Assembly (NCBI GenBank): GCA_001773215.1
Contig: MEWB01000001.1
Location: 550,099 to 614,098, forward strand
DNA from: a candidate division WWE3 bacterium RIFOXYC1_FULL_40_10
GTDB lineage: Bacteria > Patescibacteriota > WWE3 > UBA101185 > UBA10185
Direction: 5' to 3'
DNA: 64,000 bases
A program made the position numbers and the translations under genes. Positions 47,865 to 52,802 of the stretch are shown here, one piece after another (positions within the stretch are counted from its first letter, which is position 1; the number at the start of each line of letters is the position of its first letter). The notes under the pieces are model-generated. The model ran no database searches. It had not been told where the DNA came from and saw only the letters and a program-made list of their open reading frames with translations.

Positions 47865-48477
47865 ATTTGTCCTCCAAAGCCAAAAGTGCATCCTTTAGAA
47901 ACACTATCTTATGTGACTTTAATACCTCGAAGGCATTTAGATTTCCAAAAAAAGATGCCTCAAGTTTAGGTAAATTTATCAATGATTTTTTTAAATTCTC
48001 ATCTTTACTCGACCATACAAAAAGTGCTTGCGTACGAATACCTAAAGTAGACATAATCTTAGAAACTGCACCTGTTTTAGGCTTATCCAGGCTAATCTTT
48101 TCCAGTACAACGATATCACCCTTGCTGTATTTATCAGATAAAGCAGATTTCAATGCTAAGGTGATCATTTTCTTAGGTAGCTTTAGCTTCCACGATCTTG
48201 GCTTAGGTCCGTGAGCAACACCGCCCCCTACCCATAGAGGACTTCTAATAGAACCTTGTCTAGATCTGCCGGTATGCTTTTGTGCTCTTGGCTTAATACC
48301 GCCTCCTCTAACCTCAGCACGTGTTTTTGTAGATGATGTACCTTGTCTTTGATTTGAATTGTAAACTCTCAAGTACTGGGCTAACACTCCTTTGTTTGGA
48401 ACTATCCCAAAGATAGCTTTGTCTAAAGTTAACTCTTCAATATTTTTATTTTCTATATCAACTACATTAATTTTCAT
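47851..48477 (-). CDS. rplD: Ribosomal protein L4
   Basis: L4 family, 208 aa. Confidence 0.9.
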   Translation of the reverse strand: MKINVVDIENKNIEELTLDKAIFGIVPNKGVLAQYLRVYNSNQRQGTSSTKTRAEVRGGGIKPRAQKHTGRSRQGSIRSPLWVGGGVAHGPKPRSWKLKLPKKMITLALKSALSDKYSKGDIVVLEKISLDKPKTGAVSKIMSTLGIRTQALFVWSSKDENLKKSLINLPKLEASFFGNLNAFEVLKSHKIVFLKDALLALEDKYAAK

Positions 48478-48895
48478 ATATGCGTATCTGTAATTTGTTG
48501 TTTCTTGGGCCTGGAACGGGACCTGATACTACAATCTTCTTTTCTAACGAATCAACTCTCAAAATAGATAGCCCTTTGATTGTCACCTTAGCATTACCCA
48601 TTCTTCCTGCCATTTTCTTACCTTTCATAACTCTACCCGGTGTTTGAGCCCCAATTGATCCGGGAGCTCTAGGCTTATCACTTTGCCCTCTTGTGGCCAT
48701 GGAACCTTTGAATCCCCATTTCTTCATAACACCTGCAAAGCCTCTACCTTTTGAATTTCCAATAACCGTAACTTTCTTGTTTATTAAATCTTCCCCTACC
48801 TCATCTTCTGCCTGTAAAACAGTAACGGGAACAATACGTCCATCATCTTTAAATAGCTGGGTCATATTCAATTTTTTTGCTTTTATTGTTTTCAT
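48467..48895 (-). CDS. rplC: Ribosomal protein L3, unusually short (142 aa)
   Basis: N-terminus (LGKKVGMTQLF-like: KAKKLNMTQLFKDDGRIVPVTV) and C-terminus (GNSKGRGFAGVMKKWGF ... APGSIGAQTPGRVMKGKKMAGRMG) are conserved. About 60 aa of the middle region is absent. Confidence 0.8.
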   Translation of the reverse strand: MKTIKAKKLNMTQLFKDDGRIVPVTVLQAEDEVGEDLINKKVTVIGNSKGRGFAGVMKKWGFKGSMATRGQSDKPRAPGSIGAQTPGRVMKGKKMAGRMGNAKVTIKGLSILRVDSLEKKIVVSGPVPGPRNNKLQIRIYEN

Positions 48896-48910
48896 TTTGT
48901 TTACCTAACT

Positions 48911-48932
48911 AAAAAAGGCGCCCCCGGGCGCC
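48911..48932 (-). terminator. Intrinsic-terminator-like hairpin inside the S10-L3 spacer, a putative attenuator
   Basis: The minus strand reads GGCGCC-CGGG-GGCGCC followed by TTTTTT. It is the only GC-rich element in a 121-nt AT-rich spacer between rpsJ and rplC. Confidence 0.45.
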
Positions 48933-49016
48933 TTGCAGCAAGGTGACCCAAAGTATTCATCTTAATCTTTTTCTGCTCTTGTGTTTATCATTAAGTAGTT
49001 AAACGGTCAATGACCT

Positions 49017-49358
49017 TCACATCTTAATCGAAATTCCAACCCCTGCCGGCAAATTTAACTTCGAAAGATTATCAATGGTCGAGGGAGTCGGATTCAATAC
49101 ATCGATAACTCTCTTGTGTGTTCGAAGTTCAAATTGTTCTCTGCCTCTTTTATCAATATGAGGCCCTCTAATCACTGTAAATTTCTCAATTCTTGTTGGC
49201 AATGGTATTGGTCCTACAACCTTGGCCCCCGTTCTTATTGCTGTGTCAATAATTTTCCCACAGCTAAGATCTATTACCCTGCTATCATAAGAGTTTAGCT
49301 TTATTCTTATTTTCGAGTCTTTTGCGTTTTTAACTTTATTTGCCATAAAACCTTCCAA
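49017..49358 (-). CDS. rpsJ: Ribosomal protein S10. The true start is probably the ATG at 49346 ([17 protein letters not shown]).
   Basis: KIRIKL ... GPIPLPT ... S10 family. Confidence 0.9.
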
Positions 49359-49361
49359 AGT

Positions 49362-49384
49362 GTGGTCCGCCTGCGGCGGACCAC
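49362..49384 (-). other. Perfect 10-bp GC-rich stem-loop (GGTGGTCCGCC-GCA-GGCGGACCAC) in the tuf-rpsJ spacer. A possible RNA processing or stability element.
   Basis: The palindrome is seen directly in the sequence. There is no strong U-tract, only a weak UUU after ACU. Confidence 0.4.
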
Positions 49385-49399
49385 CTTCTAATTCTATTC

Positions 49400-50578
49400 T
49401 TAAGCTATAACCTTAGTTATTACTCCTGCTCCAACTGTATGCCCACCTTCTCTGATAGCGAATCTCATACCTTCTTCCAAAGCTACTGGAGTAATGAGTT
49501 TTGCCTTAAAGGTAACATCGTCACCCGGCATAACCATCTCAACACCTTCAGGTAGAGTAATTTCTCCGGTAACATCTGTGGTTCTAATGTAGAACTGAGG
49601 TCTGTAACCGCTGAAAAAAGGTTTCTGTCTTCCACCTTCCTCTTTTGAGAGAATGTAGACCTGGCAATCAAACTCTGTGTGAGGTTTAACTGATCCTGGT
49701 TTGGCCAGAACCTGTCCTCTTTCCACATCTTCTCGGTTGATACCTCTAACCAAGATACCAACATTATCCCCTGCTTGTCCTTCTTGCATCTGTTTCTTAA
49801 ACATTTCGACGCCTGTGACAACTGATTTCTTTGTATCTTTAATTCCCACAATTTCAACCTCTTCGTTTATCTTAACAAGTCCTCTTTCGATTCTTCCTGT
49901 TACAACAGTTCCTCTTCCCGAAATTGTGAAAACATCTTCAATAGGCATAAGGAACGGCTTTTCTAGGTCTCTAACCGGTGTAGGAATATATTCATCTACT
50001 TTAGCCATTAGTTCAATAATTGATTTCTTAGCATCCTCATCACCTTCAAGGGCTTTTAGCGCCGAACCTTTGATAATAGGTATTTCGTCTCCAGGGAAAC
50101 CGTATTTGGTTAGAAGTTCTCTTACCTCAAGTTCTACCAAATCTAAAATTTCTTTATCCTGAACCATGTCTACCTTATTCATAAACACAACAATAGAAGG
50201 AACATTTACTTGCTTGGCAAGTAAGATGTGTTCTCTTGTCTGTGGCATTGGACCGTCTGGAGCAGACACAACTAAAATAGCACCGTCCATTTGAGCAGCA
50301 CCTGTGATCATGTTTTTGATGTAGTCTGCATGACCTGGGGCATCAATATGAGCGTAGTGTCTTTTCTCAGTTTGATACTCAACGTGAGTAATATTGATAG
50401 TAATTCCTCTTTCCCTTTCCTCAGGGGCTTTATCAATATTCTCGAAAGCTACATATTCTCCACCGCCAACCTCGGATAAGACTTTGGTAATTGCTGAAGT
50501 CAAGGTAGTTTTACCGTGATCAACGTGTCCAATAGTTCCGATATTTACGTGTGGCTTGTTTCTAATAAAATCAGCCAT
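49400..50578 (-). CDS. tuf: Elongation factor Tu
   Basis: [21 protein letters not shown], 392 aa. Confidence 0.95.
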
Positions 50579-50708
50579 AATTTACCTTTCAAAATAATTA
50601 CTTACATTTTAAAAACCTAACTTTTTATTAAAGCCTAATAAATGCAAATGCTAGTTAACCAAATAAATGTCGAAAAATCAAGGCTTTTCGTCACAGCTGT
50701 AACATAAT

Positions 50709-52802
50709 TTACATTCTGCTGGCCTGAACCGACCTGTTGACTTGGCTGGCTATACTTGCCGGAACTTCTTCATAATGGCTTGGCTCCATGGTAAATGAGG
50801 CTCTACCTTGTGTTAAACCCCTCAGTTCCGTGGCATAACCAAACATTTCAGACAAAGGTACTTCCGTCTTGATAACTCGAGCATTCCCTCTTGAATCTGA
50901 GCTTTCAATCTTACCTCTTTTGGATGAAATGTTACCTATGACATCCCCCATATAATCTTCCGGTGTAACAATTTCTACCTTCATAATCGGTTCTATTAGG
51001 TAAGGATCTGCCTCCTTCTGGGCTTTTCGCATAGCATCTATGGCCGCCATTTTAAAGGATTGCTCCGAGGAATCGACCTCGTGGTACGACCCATCTACCA
51101 ACATAACCTTGAAATCGGTAAAGGGATAACCTGCAACTATTCCGCACTCTGCTGCCTCTTTGACACCTTTCTCAACAGCCGGAATAAATTCTCTAGGTAT
51201 AGACCCACCGACAATTTTGTTTTCAAATTCGAAGCCTGATCCTCGTGGCAGTGGTTCCATTTTAATAACTACGTGCCCATATTGCCCCCTACCTCCGGAT
51301 TGCCTAATGTATTTCCCCTCCACTCCTACAGGGTTTCTCACCGTTTCTCTGTACGCAACCTGGGGTTTTCCTGTGTTTGCCTCTACCTTAAATTCCCTTC
51401 GCATTCTATCAACAATAATATCTAAATGAAGCTCTCCCATACCATATAAAATGGTTTGGCCGGTTTCTTCGTCCGTTTTCACCTTCAAAGTAGGATCCTC
51501 TTCCAGAAACTTCTTCAACGATTCACCCATTTTGTCTCTGTCAGATTTTGTTTTTGGTTCTACTACAACCCCTATTACAGGCTCTGCAAAGCTGATACTT
51601 TCCAGTATAACGTTATTAGTTTCATCACAAAGTGTGTCACCTGTAGTGGCTTGTATACCAACAGCAGCTGCTATTTCCCCAGCTCTAATATCTTTAATCT
51701 CTTCTCTTTTATTTGCGTGCATCAGTAAAATACGCCCTAATCTTTCTTTCGTATCTTTTGTAGAATTTCTGATATAAGAACCGGCTGTTGCCTTGCCAGA
51801 GTAAACTCTAAAATAAGTTAATCTACCAACATAAGGGTCTGTTTGAACTTTAAATGCCAAAGCCACAAACGGGCCTTCTTGGTCAGCTGAAAGCTCAATA
51901 GGCTCGCCATCTGCTCCTTTTATGCCATGAACTGCAGGTTTATCCTTGGGAGAAGGCAAAAAATCTACTACGCCATCCAAAACTTTTTGGACTCCTTTAT
52001 TTCCCAAAGCGGAACCGCAATAAATGGGATAAAGCGAAGCAGTAACAGTGGCCTTCCTTAATCCAGCCTTTAACTCCTCGATTGACAGCTCCTTGCCTCC
52101 AAGATACTTTTCGAGCAAGGTGTCGTCCGATTCGGCAATGATATCTACTAGCTTGGCTCTAAACTCTTCAACTTTAGGCAACATATCTGCCGGAATTTCG
52201 GTTTCCGTTACATCGTGTCCCAACTCTCCTTCGAATTTATAAGCCTTTCTCTCTATCAGATCAATTACAGCCTCGAAGGTGTTCTCTAAACCAATAGGCA
52301 ACTGAACCGCTACTCCCTTATTTGTCAGTTTCTCCGATACAGACTGAACCGACATATAAAAATCGCCGCCTATTTTATCTAATTTATTTACGAAAAACAG
52401 CAAGGGTACGTTGTATTTTTGAGCTTGTCTAAATACTGTTTCAGATTGAGGTTCAACCCCTTGAGACCCATCTAAAAGGATCACTGCTCCATCTAAAACT
52501 CTTAACGAACGCTCAACTTCGGCTGTAAAATCCACATGACCGGGTGTATCGATTATATTTATCCTATGATCTTTCCAAAAGCATGTTGTAGCCGCGGATG
52601 TAATTGTAATACCTCTTTCTTGCTCTTGAGCCATCCAATCCATTGTTGCGGCACCTTCGTGGACTTCACCTATCTTATGGGATTTTCCGGTGTAGTACAG
52701 TACACGCTCGGTAGTCGTTGTTTTACCGGCATCTATGTGTGCAATAATTCCAATATTTCTTATCTTCTCAAGTGGGTATGTGATGTTCGAGCTTTCTGCC
52801 AT
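50709..52802 (-). CDS. fusA: Elongation factor G
   Basis: [26 protein letters not shown], 697 aa. Confidence 0.95.

Follow-up and report, generated by a model that had tools for sequence, protein, structure and literature searches.

With tiny genomes, few transcription factors, and unusual ribosomes, how do bacteria of the candidate phyla radiation (CPR) balance their production of ribosomes? The question is raised in concrete form by a 64,000-nt stretch of contig MEWB01000001.1 from the ultra-small candidate division WWE3 bacterium RIFOXYC1_FULL_40_10 (hereafter the window; all positions refer to it). Here, 121 nt on the minus strand (49016–48896) separate rpsJ from rplC, the genes for ribosomal proteins S10 and L3. 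An earlier note on this DNA, made from the letters alone, had described an attenuator-like structure in this spacer, with a terminator hairpin, an overlapping competitor, and a short open reading frame (ORF). What, then, does the spacer do?

Our analysis indicates that it is probably a functional two-state transcription attenuator, which gates the entry of RNA polymerase into the operon beginning with rplC-rplD-rplW-rplB; this reading is drawn from sequence comparison. Two alternative folds exist, they are mutually exclusive and conserved at the junction, and the pairing that forms the antiterminator covaries. Termination itself, as well as what chooses between the folds, we infer.

A terminator-like hairpin is conserved at the S10-L3 junction

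Read 5′ to 3′ on the minus strand, the S10 stop codon (49019–49017) is followed by a micro-ORF (48991–48962), the segment CUUUGGG (48953–48947), CCUUG-CUG-CAAGG (48943–48931), a GC-rich hairpin (48934–48915), a U6 run ending at 48911, AGGU (48906–48903), and the rplC ATG at 48895. The hairpin core reported in the earlier note, AAGGCGCC-CGGG-GGCGCCTT plus T6, was found at 48934–48911 and ends 15 nt before the rplC start. The full stem-loop, AAGGCGCC-CGGG-GGCGCCUU (48934–48915), has 8 bp, six of them G-C pairs, a 4-nt loop, and a predicted energy of −14.3 kcal/mol; the first two U of the run (T6, 48916–48911) are paired with AA at the stem base. This is the form predicted for an intrinsic terminator, a GC-rich stem-loop leading directly into a U-run on the transcribed strand. 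When both strands of the whole 64 kb were scanned for hairpins of at least −8 kcal/mol in strength followed by T5, four sites were detected, two of which are intergenic; the rpsJ-rplC hairpin is one of these two and the strongest of the four.

S10-L3 junctions were gathered from reference genomes and metagenomes. The nearest relatives by L3 and S10 belong to candidate division WWE3 and other Patescibacteria, with identities of 57–65% for L3 and 79–95% for S10. Loci whose S10 was at least 79% identical were classed as WWE3-like, and all 29 of them have a large spacer (87–243 nt). The 24 distinct spacers of this first round carry a GC hairpin, usually GGCGCCC-loop-GGGCGCY, and then a T-run, 10–78 nt before rplC. 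The T-runs of these relatives are T5 to T8 and begin directly at the stem or 1–3 nt further on. A covariance model built on the 24 spacers (R1) was run over 499 kb on both strands, the rest of the window included, and matched solely at the S10-L3 junction. As R1 matched once per locus and always at this junction, a repeat or mobile element was rejected.

For a blind test, an L3 search of a large protein database supplied 10 further contigs, mostly Logan assemblies, whose spacers (98–282 nt) have no blastn similarity to the first set. The hairpin and T-run were present in all 10, at 11–52 nt before rplC, and R1 detected every one. This brings the count to 34/34 WWE3-like spacers analysed (24 first-round and 10 blind-test), with the hairpin 10–78 nt before rplC throughout. 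Such conservation, blind set included, lifts the observation above the chance level of single-sequence folding, and the terminator described in the earlier note is no peculiarity of one genome, being found again in every orthologous spacer of this set. Exceptions lie outside the 34: three loci (L091–L093) lack the GC hairpin, and in a fourth (L002) it is degenerate.

A competing antiterminator pairing covaries with the terminator

The 5′ strand of the antiterminator lies at 48953–48939 and comprises a conserved core, segment A (CUUUGGG, 48953–48947), and CCUUG (48943–48939). Its 3′ strand, identified by nascent-RNA folding and duplex tests, is CAAGG C GCCCGGGG (48935–48922), that is, the terminator 5′ arm, the loop, and the first G of the 3′ arm. 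Because these residues are shared with the terminator, the two folds are mutually exclusive. The partner of segment A is the 3′ half of the terminator 5′ arm together with the loop, the core in the window being CUUUGGG:CCCGGGG. The competing hairpin CCTTG-CTG-CAAGG (48943–48931) of the earlier note does exist and does overlap the terminator 5′ arm, but it turned out to be only the apex of this longer antiterminator. Among relatives, the apical part is variable in both length and sequence.

The strength of the antiterminator duplex was compared with a null in which the 50 nt upstream were shuffled 500 times with their composition preserved. In the window, the duplex reached −14.0 kcal/mol (p = 0.034), and the window's own upstream region ranked 1st of 24. 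The real duplex was stronger than the shuffled mean in 23/24 first-round sequences, with p < 0.05 in 15 of them; in the blind set, it beat the null mean in 10/10, with p ≤ 0.06 in 8. We also applied an alignment-free swap test, in which each terminator was matched either to its own upstream region or to permuted ones. Own pairings of the 24 first-round sequences summed to −247 kcal/mol versus −184 ± 9 kcal/mol for permuted pairings (z = −6.8). The 10 blind sequences alone gave −100.2 versus −68.9 ± 6.1, and all 34 together gave −347 versus −254 ± 11 kcal/mol (z = −8.3). In each of the three tests, 0/20,000 permutations were as good as the real pairing. Lineages with unusual loops placed their own partner first or second.

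Concerted changes among relatives are seen in AAGGG:CCCUU, UAGGG:CCCUA, CUUGGG:CCCAAG, and CUUGGA:UCCAAG, and further ones in UUUGGGC:GCCCAAA, UUAGAG:CUCUAA, and GAAGCG:CGCUUC. MAFFT put the short A segment out of register, and a hand-anchored alignment was used instead. On this alignment, the five core pairs were 95.8% paired versus 72.4% in shuffles (0/500), all five (5/5) change on both sides, and slid registers were 29–72% paired. Segment A was also considered as a decoy for the 30S subunit that resembles a Shine-Dalgarno (SD) sequence, given that AAGGGU looks like an SD. This candidate was rejected, as lineages with UUAGAG, GAAGCG, and CUUGGA keep the pairing and lose the SD likeness.

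Unconstrained folding of the nascent RNA, taken from the stop codon of the micro-ORF up to the terminator loop, produced the antiterminator in 24/24 sequences, with the terminator 5′ arm sequestered to 78% on average. Averaged over the 24 sequences, the antiterminator has an energy of −9.0 kcal/mol; the terminator, after synthesis of its 3′ arm, has −13.7 kcal/mol. The two folds differ little in energy in the window (−15.7 for the antiterminator, −14.3 for the terminator), and the antiterminator is the minimum free energy (MFE) structure of the nascent RNA there. A search for an anti-antiterminator that pairs with segment A gave values equal to the shuffled null, and 3736/5000 permutations were as good in the swap test. 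One subfamily offers a weak hint of such a structure, in that AGUAUYCUA immediately follows the S10 stop and is able to pair with AAGGGUAU.

A conserved micro-ORF precedes both hairpins

Upstream of both hairpins, comparison with relatives revealed a candidate micro-ORF, ATG ATA AAC ACA AGA GCA GAA AAA GAT TAA (MINTRAEKD*; 48991–48962, minus strand). Its ATG (48991–48989) stands in a TAATG context that resembles a −10 box in relatives. An ATG-initiated ORF of 6–10 sense codons (14 in one case) is present in 32/34 spacers. Its stop falls 24–37 nt before the hairpin, and the standard deviation of this position is 2.9 nt, versus 4.7 nt for the ATG and 9.3 and 16.6 nt for the first stops of the other frames. 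Within 15 nt after the ATG, frame 0 contains no stop triplet, and frames 1 and 2 contain 30 and 21, respectively. About half of the micro-ORFs have a Thr codon (ACA or ACU) just before the stop, and all three stop codons occur. The motif AC[AT]-TA[AG] is in frame in 17/19 occurrences, at four different distances. In the predicted peptides (e.g. MINKRT, MIVFKEKT, MLVVSEKG, and MINTRAEKD), we detected no codon runs or known arrest motif, and the frequent C-terminal Thr is the sole recurrent feature.

In a subclade whose ATG overlaps TATAAT or TAGAAT (L001, L090, L095, L007, L162, L164, L166, and L167, maybe a single lineage), codon 4 of the micro-ORF is GTG, as judged by eye. This codon sits at the expected transcription start of that box, and a leaderless in-frame GUG start on a promoter-derived RNA is conceivable. 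Read on the plus strand, the micro-ORF region contains UGCUCUUGUG in the window (48970–48986) and UGUUCUUUU in several relatives (L084, L087, and L089), both of which we take to resemble the BoxA consensus. This likeness is probably a coincidence, because it lies on the antisense strand.

Promoter-like boxes near the micro-ORF

The spacer of the window also contains a weak promoter-like site (49010–48982, minus strand), with TTGACC (49010–49005), a 17-nt spacer ending in TGA, and TAAACA (48987–48982), which has no T at −7. This TTGACC-17-TAAACA site was not called by a consensus promoter scan. Better promoter-like boxes occur at the equivalent place in relatives. Promoter-like matches in the AT-rich DNA of the window were not above chance (25 found, 30.2 expected). 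A single conserved promoter register behind the invariant ATG was rejected, since the boxes lie at −34, −8, −2, or +2 relative to the ATG depending on the lineage.

The three loci without the GC hairpin (L091, L092, and L093; S10 87% identical; spacers of 87–95 nt) have a promoter-like box, TGGTAGAAT or TGGTAAAAT, in its place; as an extended −10-like box, it reads TTTTTTTGGTAGAAT or TGGTAAAAT. These loci keep a box and have no hairpin; the attenuator can therefore be lost, and a promoter specific to rplC appears to be present in this clade.

Genomic context and occurrence beyond the WWE3-like clade

Nearly all genes of the window are on the minus strand, and the gene order around the spacer is rpoB-rpoC-rpsL-rpsG-fusA-tuf-rpsJ-[121 nt]-rplC-rplD-rplW-rplB and onward. 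The flanks of the spacer are rpsJ and rplC, with S10, L3, L4, L23, and EF-Tu (tuf) identified by NCBIfam. The 5′ gene, rpsJ (49346–49017, minus strand), matched the S10 equivalog at E = 1.5e-42 and ends in TGA (49019–49017). The first 3′ gene, rplC (48895–48467, minus strand), matched L3_bact with 144.7 bits and is followed by rplD, rplW, and rplB. It encodes a short, 142-aa form of L3 in which ~60 internal residues are absent, and the match covers profile positions 103–202 only, plus a short N-terminus. This short form is frequent in relatives too, and for some CPR bacteria, uL3 with an internal deletion has already been reported (PMC9297842).

The window is compact, and neighbouring genes are mostly spaced by −40 to +15 nt. 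The earlier note had called the 121-nt spacer the only sizeable gap of the operon; this holds from rplC onward, but further upstream there are gaps of 41 nt (tuf-rpsJ) and 130 nt (fusA-tuf). The AT-rich window has a GC content of 38–41%, and the earlier estimate of about 35% was too low.

A second strong hairpin, GUGGUCCGCC-GCA-GGCGGACCAC (49384–49362, minus strand), occupies the tuf-rpsJ spacer (49399–49347) and is without a proper U-run. A counterpart with a GC stem of 9–13 bp was found in every WWE3-like relative examined; the letters differ and the stem is kept, followed by TTT, TTTT, or nothing. It might act as a leaky terminator or stabilise the 3′ end of the tuf mRNA. With conserved hairpins in both the tuf-rpsJ gap and the rpsJ-rplC spacer, rpsJ is flanked by two conserved structures. 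In the WWE3-like clade, rpsJ is predicted to be grouped transcriptionally with tuf, not with rplC.

The 165-nt gap upstream of rpoB (60858–60694, minus strand) contains TTGACA, a 17-nt spacer, and TAACGT, together with a predicted structure. TTGACA-17-TAACGT is a sigma-70-like promoter candidate for rpoBC and suggests that promoters of this organism are of the ordinary −35/−10 type. The other intergenic hairpin with a T-run in the window (62845–62818, minus strand; GGACGGUAA...UUACCGUCC, −11.8 kcal/mol, then TATTTTTT) lies just 3′ of a minus-strand gene (63597–62854), with a plus-strand gene converging on it, and has the appearance of an ordinary terminator. For the rpsJ-rplC hairpin, a bidirectional terminator serving a plus-strand gene was rejected, as its surroundings contain no plus-strand gene and no T-run follows it on the plus strand.

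Hairpins unrelated to that of WWE3, each with a T-run and 12–40 nt before rplC, were found at the same junction in many non-WWE3 Patescibacteria (L011, L013, L015, L021, L040, L043, L049, L062, L072, L074, L075, L077, and L105). Among the loci retrieved, those of Planctomycetota, Chloroflexota, and other non-CPR groups have no such hairpin, and it is likewise missing in Dojkabacteria, whose gap measures 14–21 nt. Applying the full switch model to Patescibacteria other than WWE3 was rejected: the micro-ORF is inconsistent there, and antiterminator complementarity was significant in only 4/19 loci. We therefore claim the full switch solely for the WWE3-like clade. The S10|L3 boundary may be a general control point in Patescibacteria.

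Proposed mechanism and evidence against it

On the nascent RNA, segment A would pair with the 3′ half of the terminator 5′ arm and the loop, and polymerase would read through; the antiterminator would form first, because the terminator 3′ arm is not yet made. Were the pairing of segment A prevented, the GC hairpin with its U-run, which is the more stable fold, would form instead, and transcription would stop 15 nt before rplC. The same hairpin would end transcripts coming from the highly expressed tuf-rpsJ unit. As for the trigger, our best guess, a tentative one, is a ribosome on the conserved micro-ORF of 6–10 codons, which ends 7–19 nt upstream of A. Should this be true, transcription of r-protein genes would be tied to translational capacity. 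We consider it doubtful that the SD-less ORF, whose ATG would lie within the −10 box of a promoter in the spacer, senses translational activity in such a way that the position of the terminating ribosome beside the antiterminator decides entry into the rplC operon. Owing to this overlap of start codon and promoter, the ORF would be present on RNA coming in from tuf-rpsJ but absent from RNA begun at the spacer promoter, and the device could treat the two RNAs differently. A trigger other than a micro-ORF ribosome, an r-protein, or a constitutive leak or insulator seems quite unlikely.

Several observations weigh against an attenuator driven by the micro-ORF. For the hairpins, significance on the single sequence is marginal: the terminator hairpin (−14.3 kcal/mol) has z = −1.9, and so does the fold of the whole spacer, with 8/200 shuffles folding equally well. 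A simple terminator scan of the window gave no excess over shuffles (11 versus 11.0). In 11/24 first-round relatives, 1–3 non-U bases separate the stem from the U-run, and terminators with such an interrupted run may be weak. No covariation signal was obtained for the terminator stem, which is nearly invariant (89.6% paired), so that there is hardly any variation to score; its support comes from conservation, from the U-run, and from its substitution by different stems in L006, L099/L101, L161, and L168. The alignment behind the pair counts for the antiterminator was hand-anchored and N-padded, which the alignment-free tests offset only partly.

For the micro-ORF, the objections are more numerous. 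Two of the 34 spacers are without it, and the choice of ATG in the most divergent sequences was made partly by ORF geometry, which introduces selection bias. It has no SD, as is likewise true of 57% of the genes of the window. In many lineages, the ATG ends a −10-like box (TG[AC]TA[TAG]AAT-G in 7/32, TATAAT-G in others), and promoter-started transcripts might therefore miss the AUG; in other lineages, the ATG stands 2–8 nt after a box that has a −35 partner. The micro-ORF stop lies 7–19 nt (median ~14 nt) upstream of the antiterminator base, and there is no overlap with the first pairing segment. By its textbook footprint, a ribosome at a stop codon covers ~10 nt beyond it, and at these distances it would therefore reach A in only a few lineages.

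Alternative explanations

The same switch could have an r-protein as its trigger. L4, by analogy with Escherichia coli, or L3, L23, or L2 in excess would bind the leader and either block or destabilise the antiterminator or stabilise a paused complex at the terminator, giving autogenous attenuation. Binding of this kind is the established logic of r-protein operons (L4 in E. coli, L10(L12)4 and L20 in Bacillus subtilis), and a candidate L4 leader of Archaeoglobi lies directly upstream of rplC (PMC7247131). Furthermore, the terminator stem, with its GCGCC core, is conserved far beyond the need of a plain terminator, which could reflect protein recognition, and the interrupted U-runs in many relatives are as expected of factor-dependent terminators. 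However, no conserved structured element that might mimic an rRNA site lies beyond the two hairpins, the antiterminator apex differs among relatives in both its length and its sequence, an rplJL-type anti-antiterminator was not found, and no known r-leader model matches; we regard an r-protein trigger as possible, if somewhat unlikely. The spacer might also be an operon boundary with no regulated input, where the hairpin ends the tuf-rpsJ unit with a built-in leak and the antiterminator either sets a constant read-through or passes transcripts from a spacer promoter while read-through from upstream stops. The two conserved hairpins that bracket rpsJ fit such a boundary, as do the promoter-like boxes just upstream of the switch in many relatives, the L091–L093 spacers with only a TGGTAGAAT or TGGTAAAAT box and no hairpin, the unrelated hairpins with T-runs at the same junction in other Patescibacteria, and the failure to find an effector site. 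Yet a fixed leak could be obtained simply by weakening the terminator, and the upkeep of a covarying competitor helix suggests that the choice of fold matters. RNA begun at the putative promoters would also have to pass the hairpin, which lies 3′ of them, and the promoter-like matches themselves stayed below the number expected by chance. We consider a boundary of this kind unlikely.

Two further explanations involve translation. The 19-codon ORF of the earlier note (MNTLGHLAARRPGAPFLVR*, ATG at 48960 to TAA at 48901, minus strand) is real, spans both hairpins, and ends 5 nt before the rplC ATG, and a ribosome translating it would melt the terminator, as in pyrBI-type coupling. It has no counterpart in most relatives and no SD upstream; in several spacers, the stretch from the micro-ORF to the hairpin is devoid of any ATG, and an open frame across a GC-rich hairpin in an AT-rich spacer is expected by chance. 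Such coupling is hardly credible, and what is conserved is a different micro-ORF, further upstream. Alternatively, an extended stem might hide the rplC SD, so that the main function would be control of L3 translation rather than termination. The SD AGGT (48906–48903) can indeed pair with CACCU upstream of the terminator in the fold of the window spacer: when downstream sequence is included (48953–48896), CACCU/UGCU pairs with AGUU/AGGU in a stem over the SD, with an MFE of −23.2 kcal/mol (z = −2.0), and the sequestering duplex has p = 0.056 against shuffles. This pairing is not conserved, however, as the swap test was flat (1993/5000 permutations as good), only the window and, weakly, L003 came near significance, and the hairpin lies anywhere between 10 and 78 nt from the rplC start. 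A translational operator is thus very unlikely to be the main function, and the SD pairing probably lies outside the conserved device.

Comparison with known attenuators

No match to Rfam 15 was obtained at the gathering threshold for the whole window or at E ≤ 10 for 48300–50800, where there was only sub-threshold noise. Known models of L4 leaders and other r-leaders, L4-Archaeoglobi included, did not overlap the spacer at E ≤ 10. Literature searches on r-leaders and terminators in CPR or Patescibacteria returned nothing on the S10-L3 junction, and no CPR r-protein leader was found there or in Rfam 15. The kind of device, an attenuator of an r-protein operon, is known, whereas this RNA family is absent from Rfam and from the literature searched.

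In the S10 leader of E. coli, L4 acts through a terminator hairpin and an upstream hairpin, together with NusA, and translational repression also occurs; the r-protein leaders of E. coli are largely confined to Gammaproteobacteria (PMC3616713). The WWE3 element resembles this leader in having a terminator hairpin with a U-run a few tens of nucleotides before the first gene of a large r-protein operon, in the involvement of an upstream hairpin, and in the rplC-rplD-rplW-rplB genes that are gated. However, the E. coli leader precedes rpsJ, whereas the WWE3 element follows rpsJ and precedes rplC, splitting the canonical S10 operon. The former is confined to Gammaproteobacteria and consists of five hairpins (HA–HE, one of them over the S10 start) with no described competition between terminator and antiterminator, whereas the latter is a two-state switch. 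The earlier note had suggested a relocated or independently evolved control point; because the two leaders have no sequence or structure in common and no model matches, relocation finds no support, and we favour an independent origin. A role of L4 is suggested by analogy.

Among the B. subtilis leaders, that of rplJL has an anti-antiterminator, an antiterminator, and a terminator under the control of L10(L12)4, with a leader peptide downstream of the terminator (PMC4538822), and the infC leader shows attenuation controlled by L20 (PMC1865079). As in these leaders, antiterminator and intrinsic terminator share residues in the WWE3 element, and the predicted default fold is the antiterminator, which would lead to read-through. 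Unlike them, the WWE3 element has no conserved third structure, which in B. subtilis (an anti-antiterminator or a long-range pairing) is the protein target. The rplJL leader peptide has its SD inside the 3′ arm of the terminator and is thought to block Rho, whereas the WWE3 micro-ORF is SD-less and upstream of both hairpins. In Archaeoglobi, the L4 leader candidate lies directly upstream of rplC-rplD-rplW-rplB, S10 not being the first gene there (Eckert & Weinberg 2020; PMC7247131); that motif is archaeal and different, and its position before rplC is the same as in WWE3.

The WWE3 element also resembles the leader-peptide attenuators of trp/his/phe and erm/cat, in which a short upstream ORF is followed by a mutually exclusive antiterminator and terminator. 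In the classic examples, the ORF extends over the first pairing segment and contains runs of regulatory codons or arrest motifs. The WWE3 element has neither; it lacks pairing by a segment 1, and the genes it would control encode ribosomal proteins, unlike those of the classic systems. Among the r-protein attenuators in the literature consulted, none is driven by a leader peptide.

Significance

R-protein leaders are lineage-specific, and an attenuator supported by covariation at the head of the main r-protein operon provides a concrete control point in CPR bacteria, together with a covariance model for annotation. If the micro-ORF is the sensor, the element would be a leader-peptide attenuator acting on r-protein genes, with direct feedback from translation to ribosome synthesis. 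If, moreover, the SD-less ORF reports translation from within the promoter as considered above, the analogous hairpins at this junction across Patescibacteria would point to phylum-wide control of ribosome production in organisms that have very few regulators.

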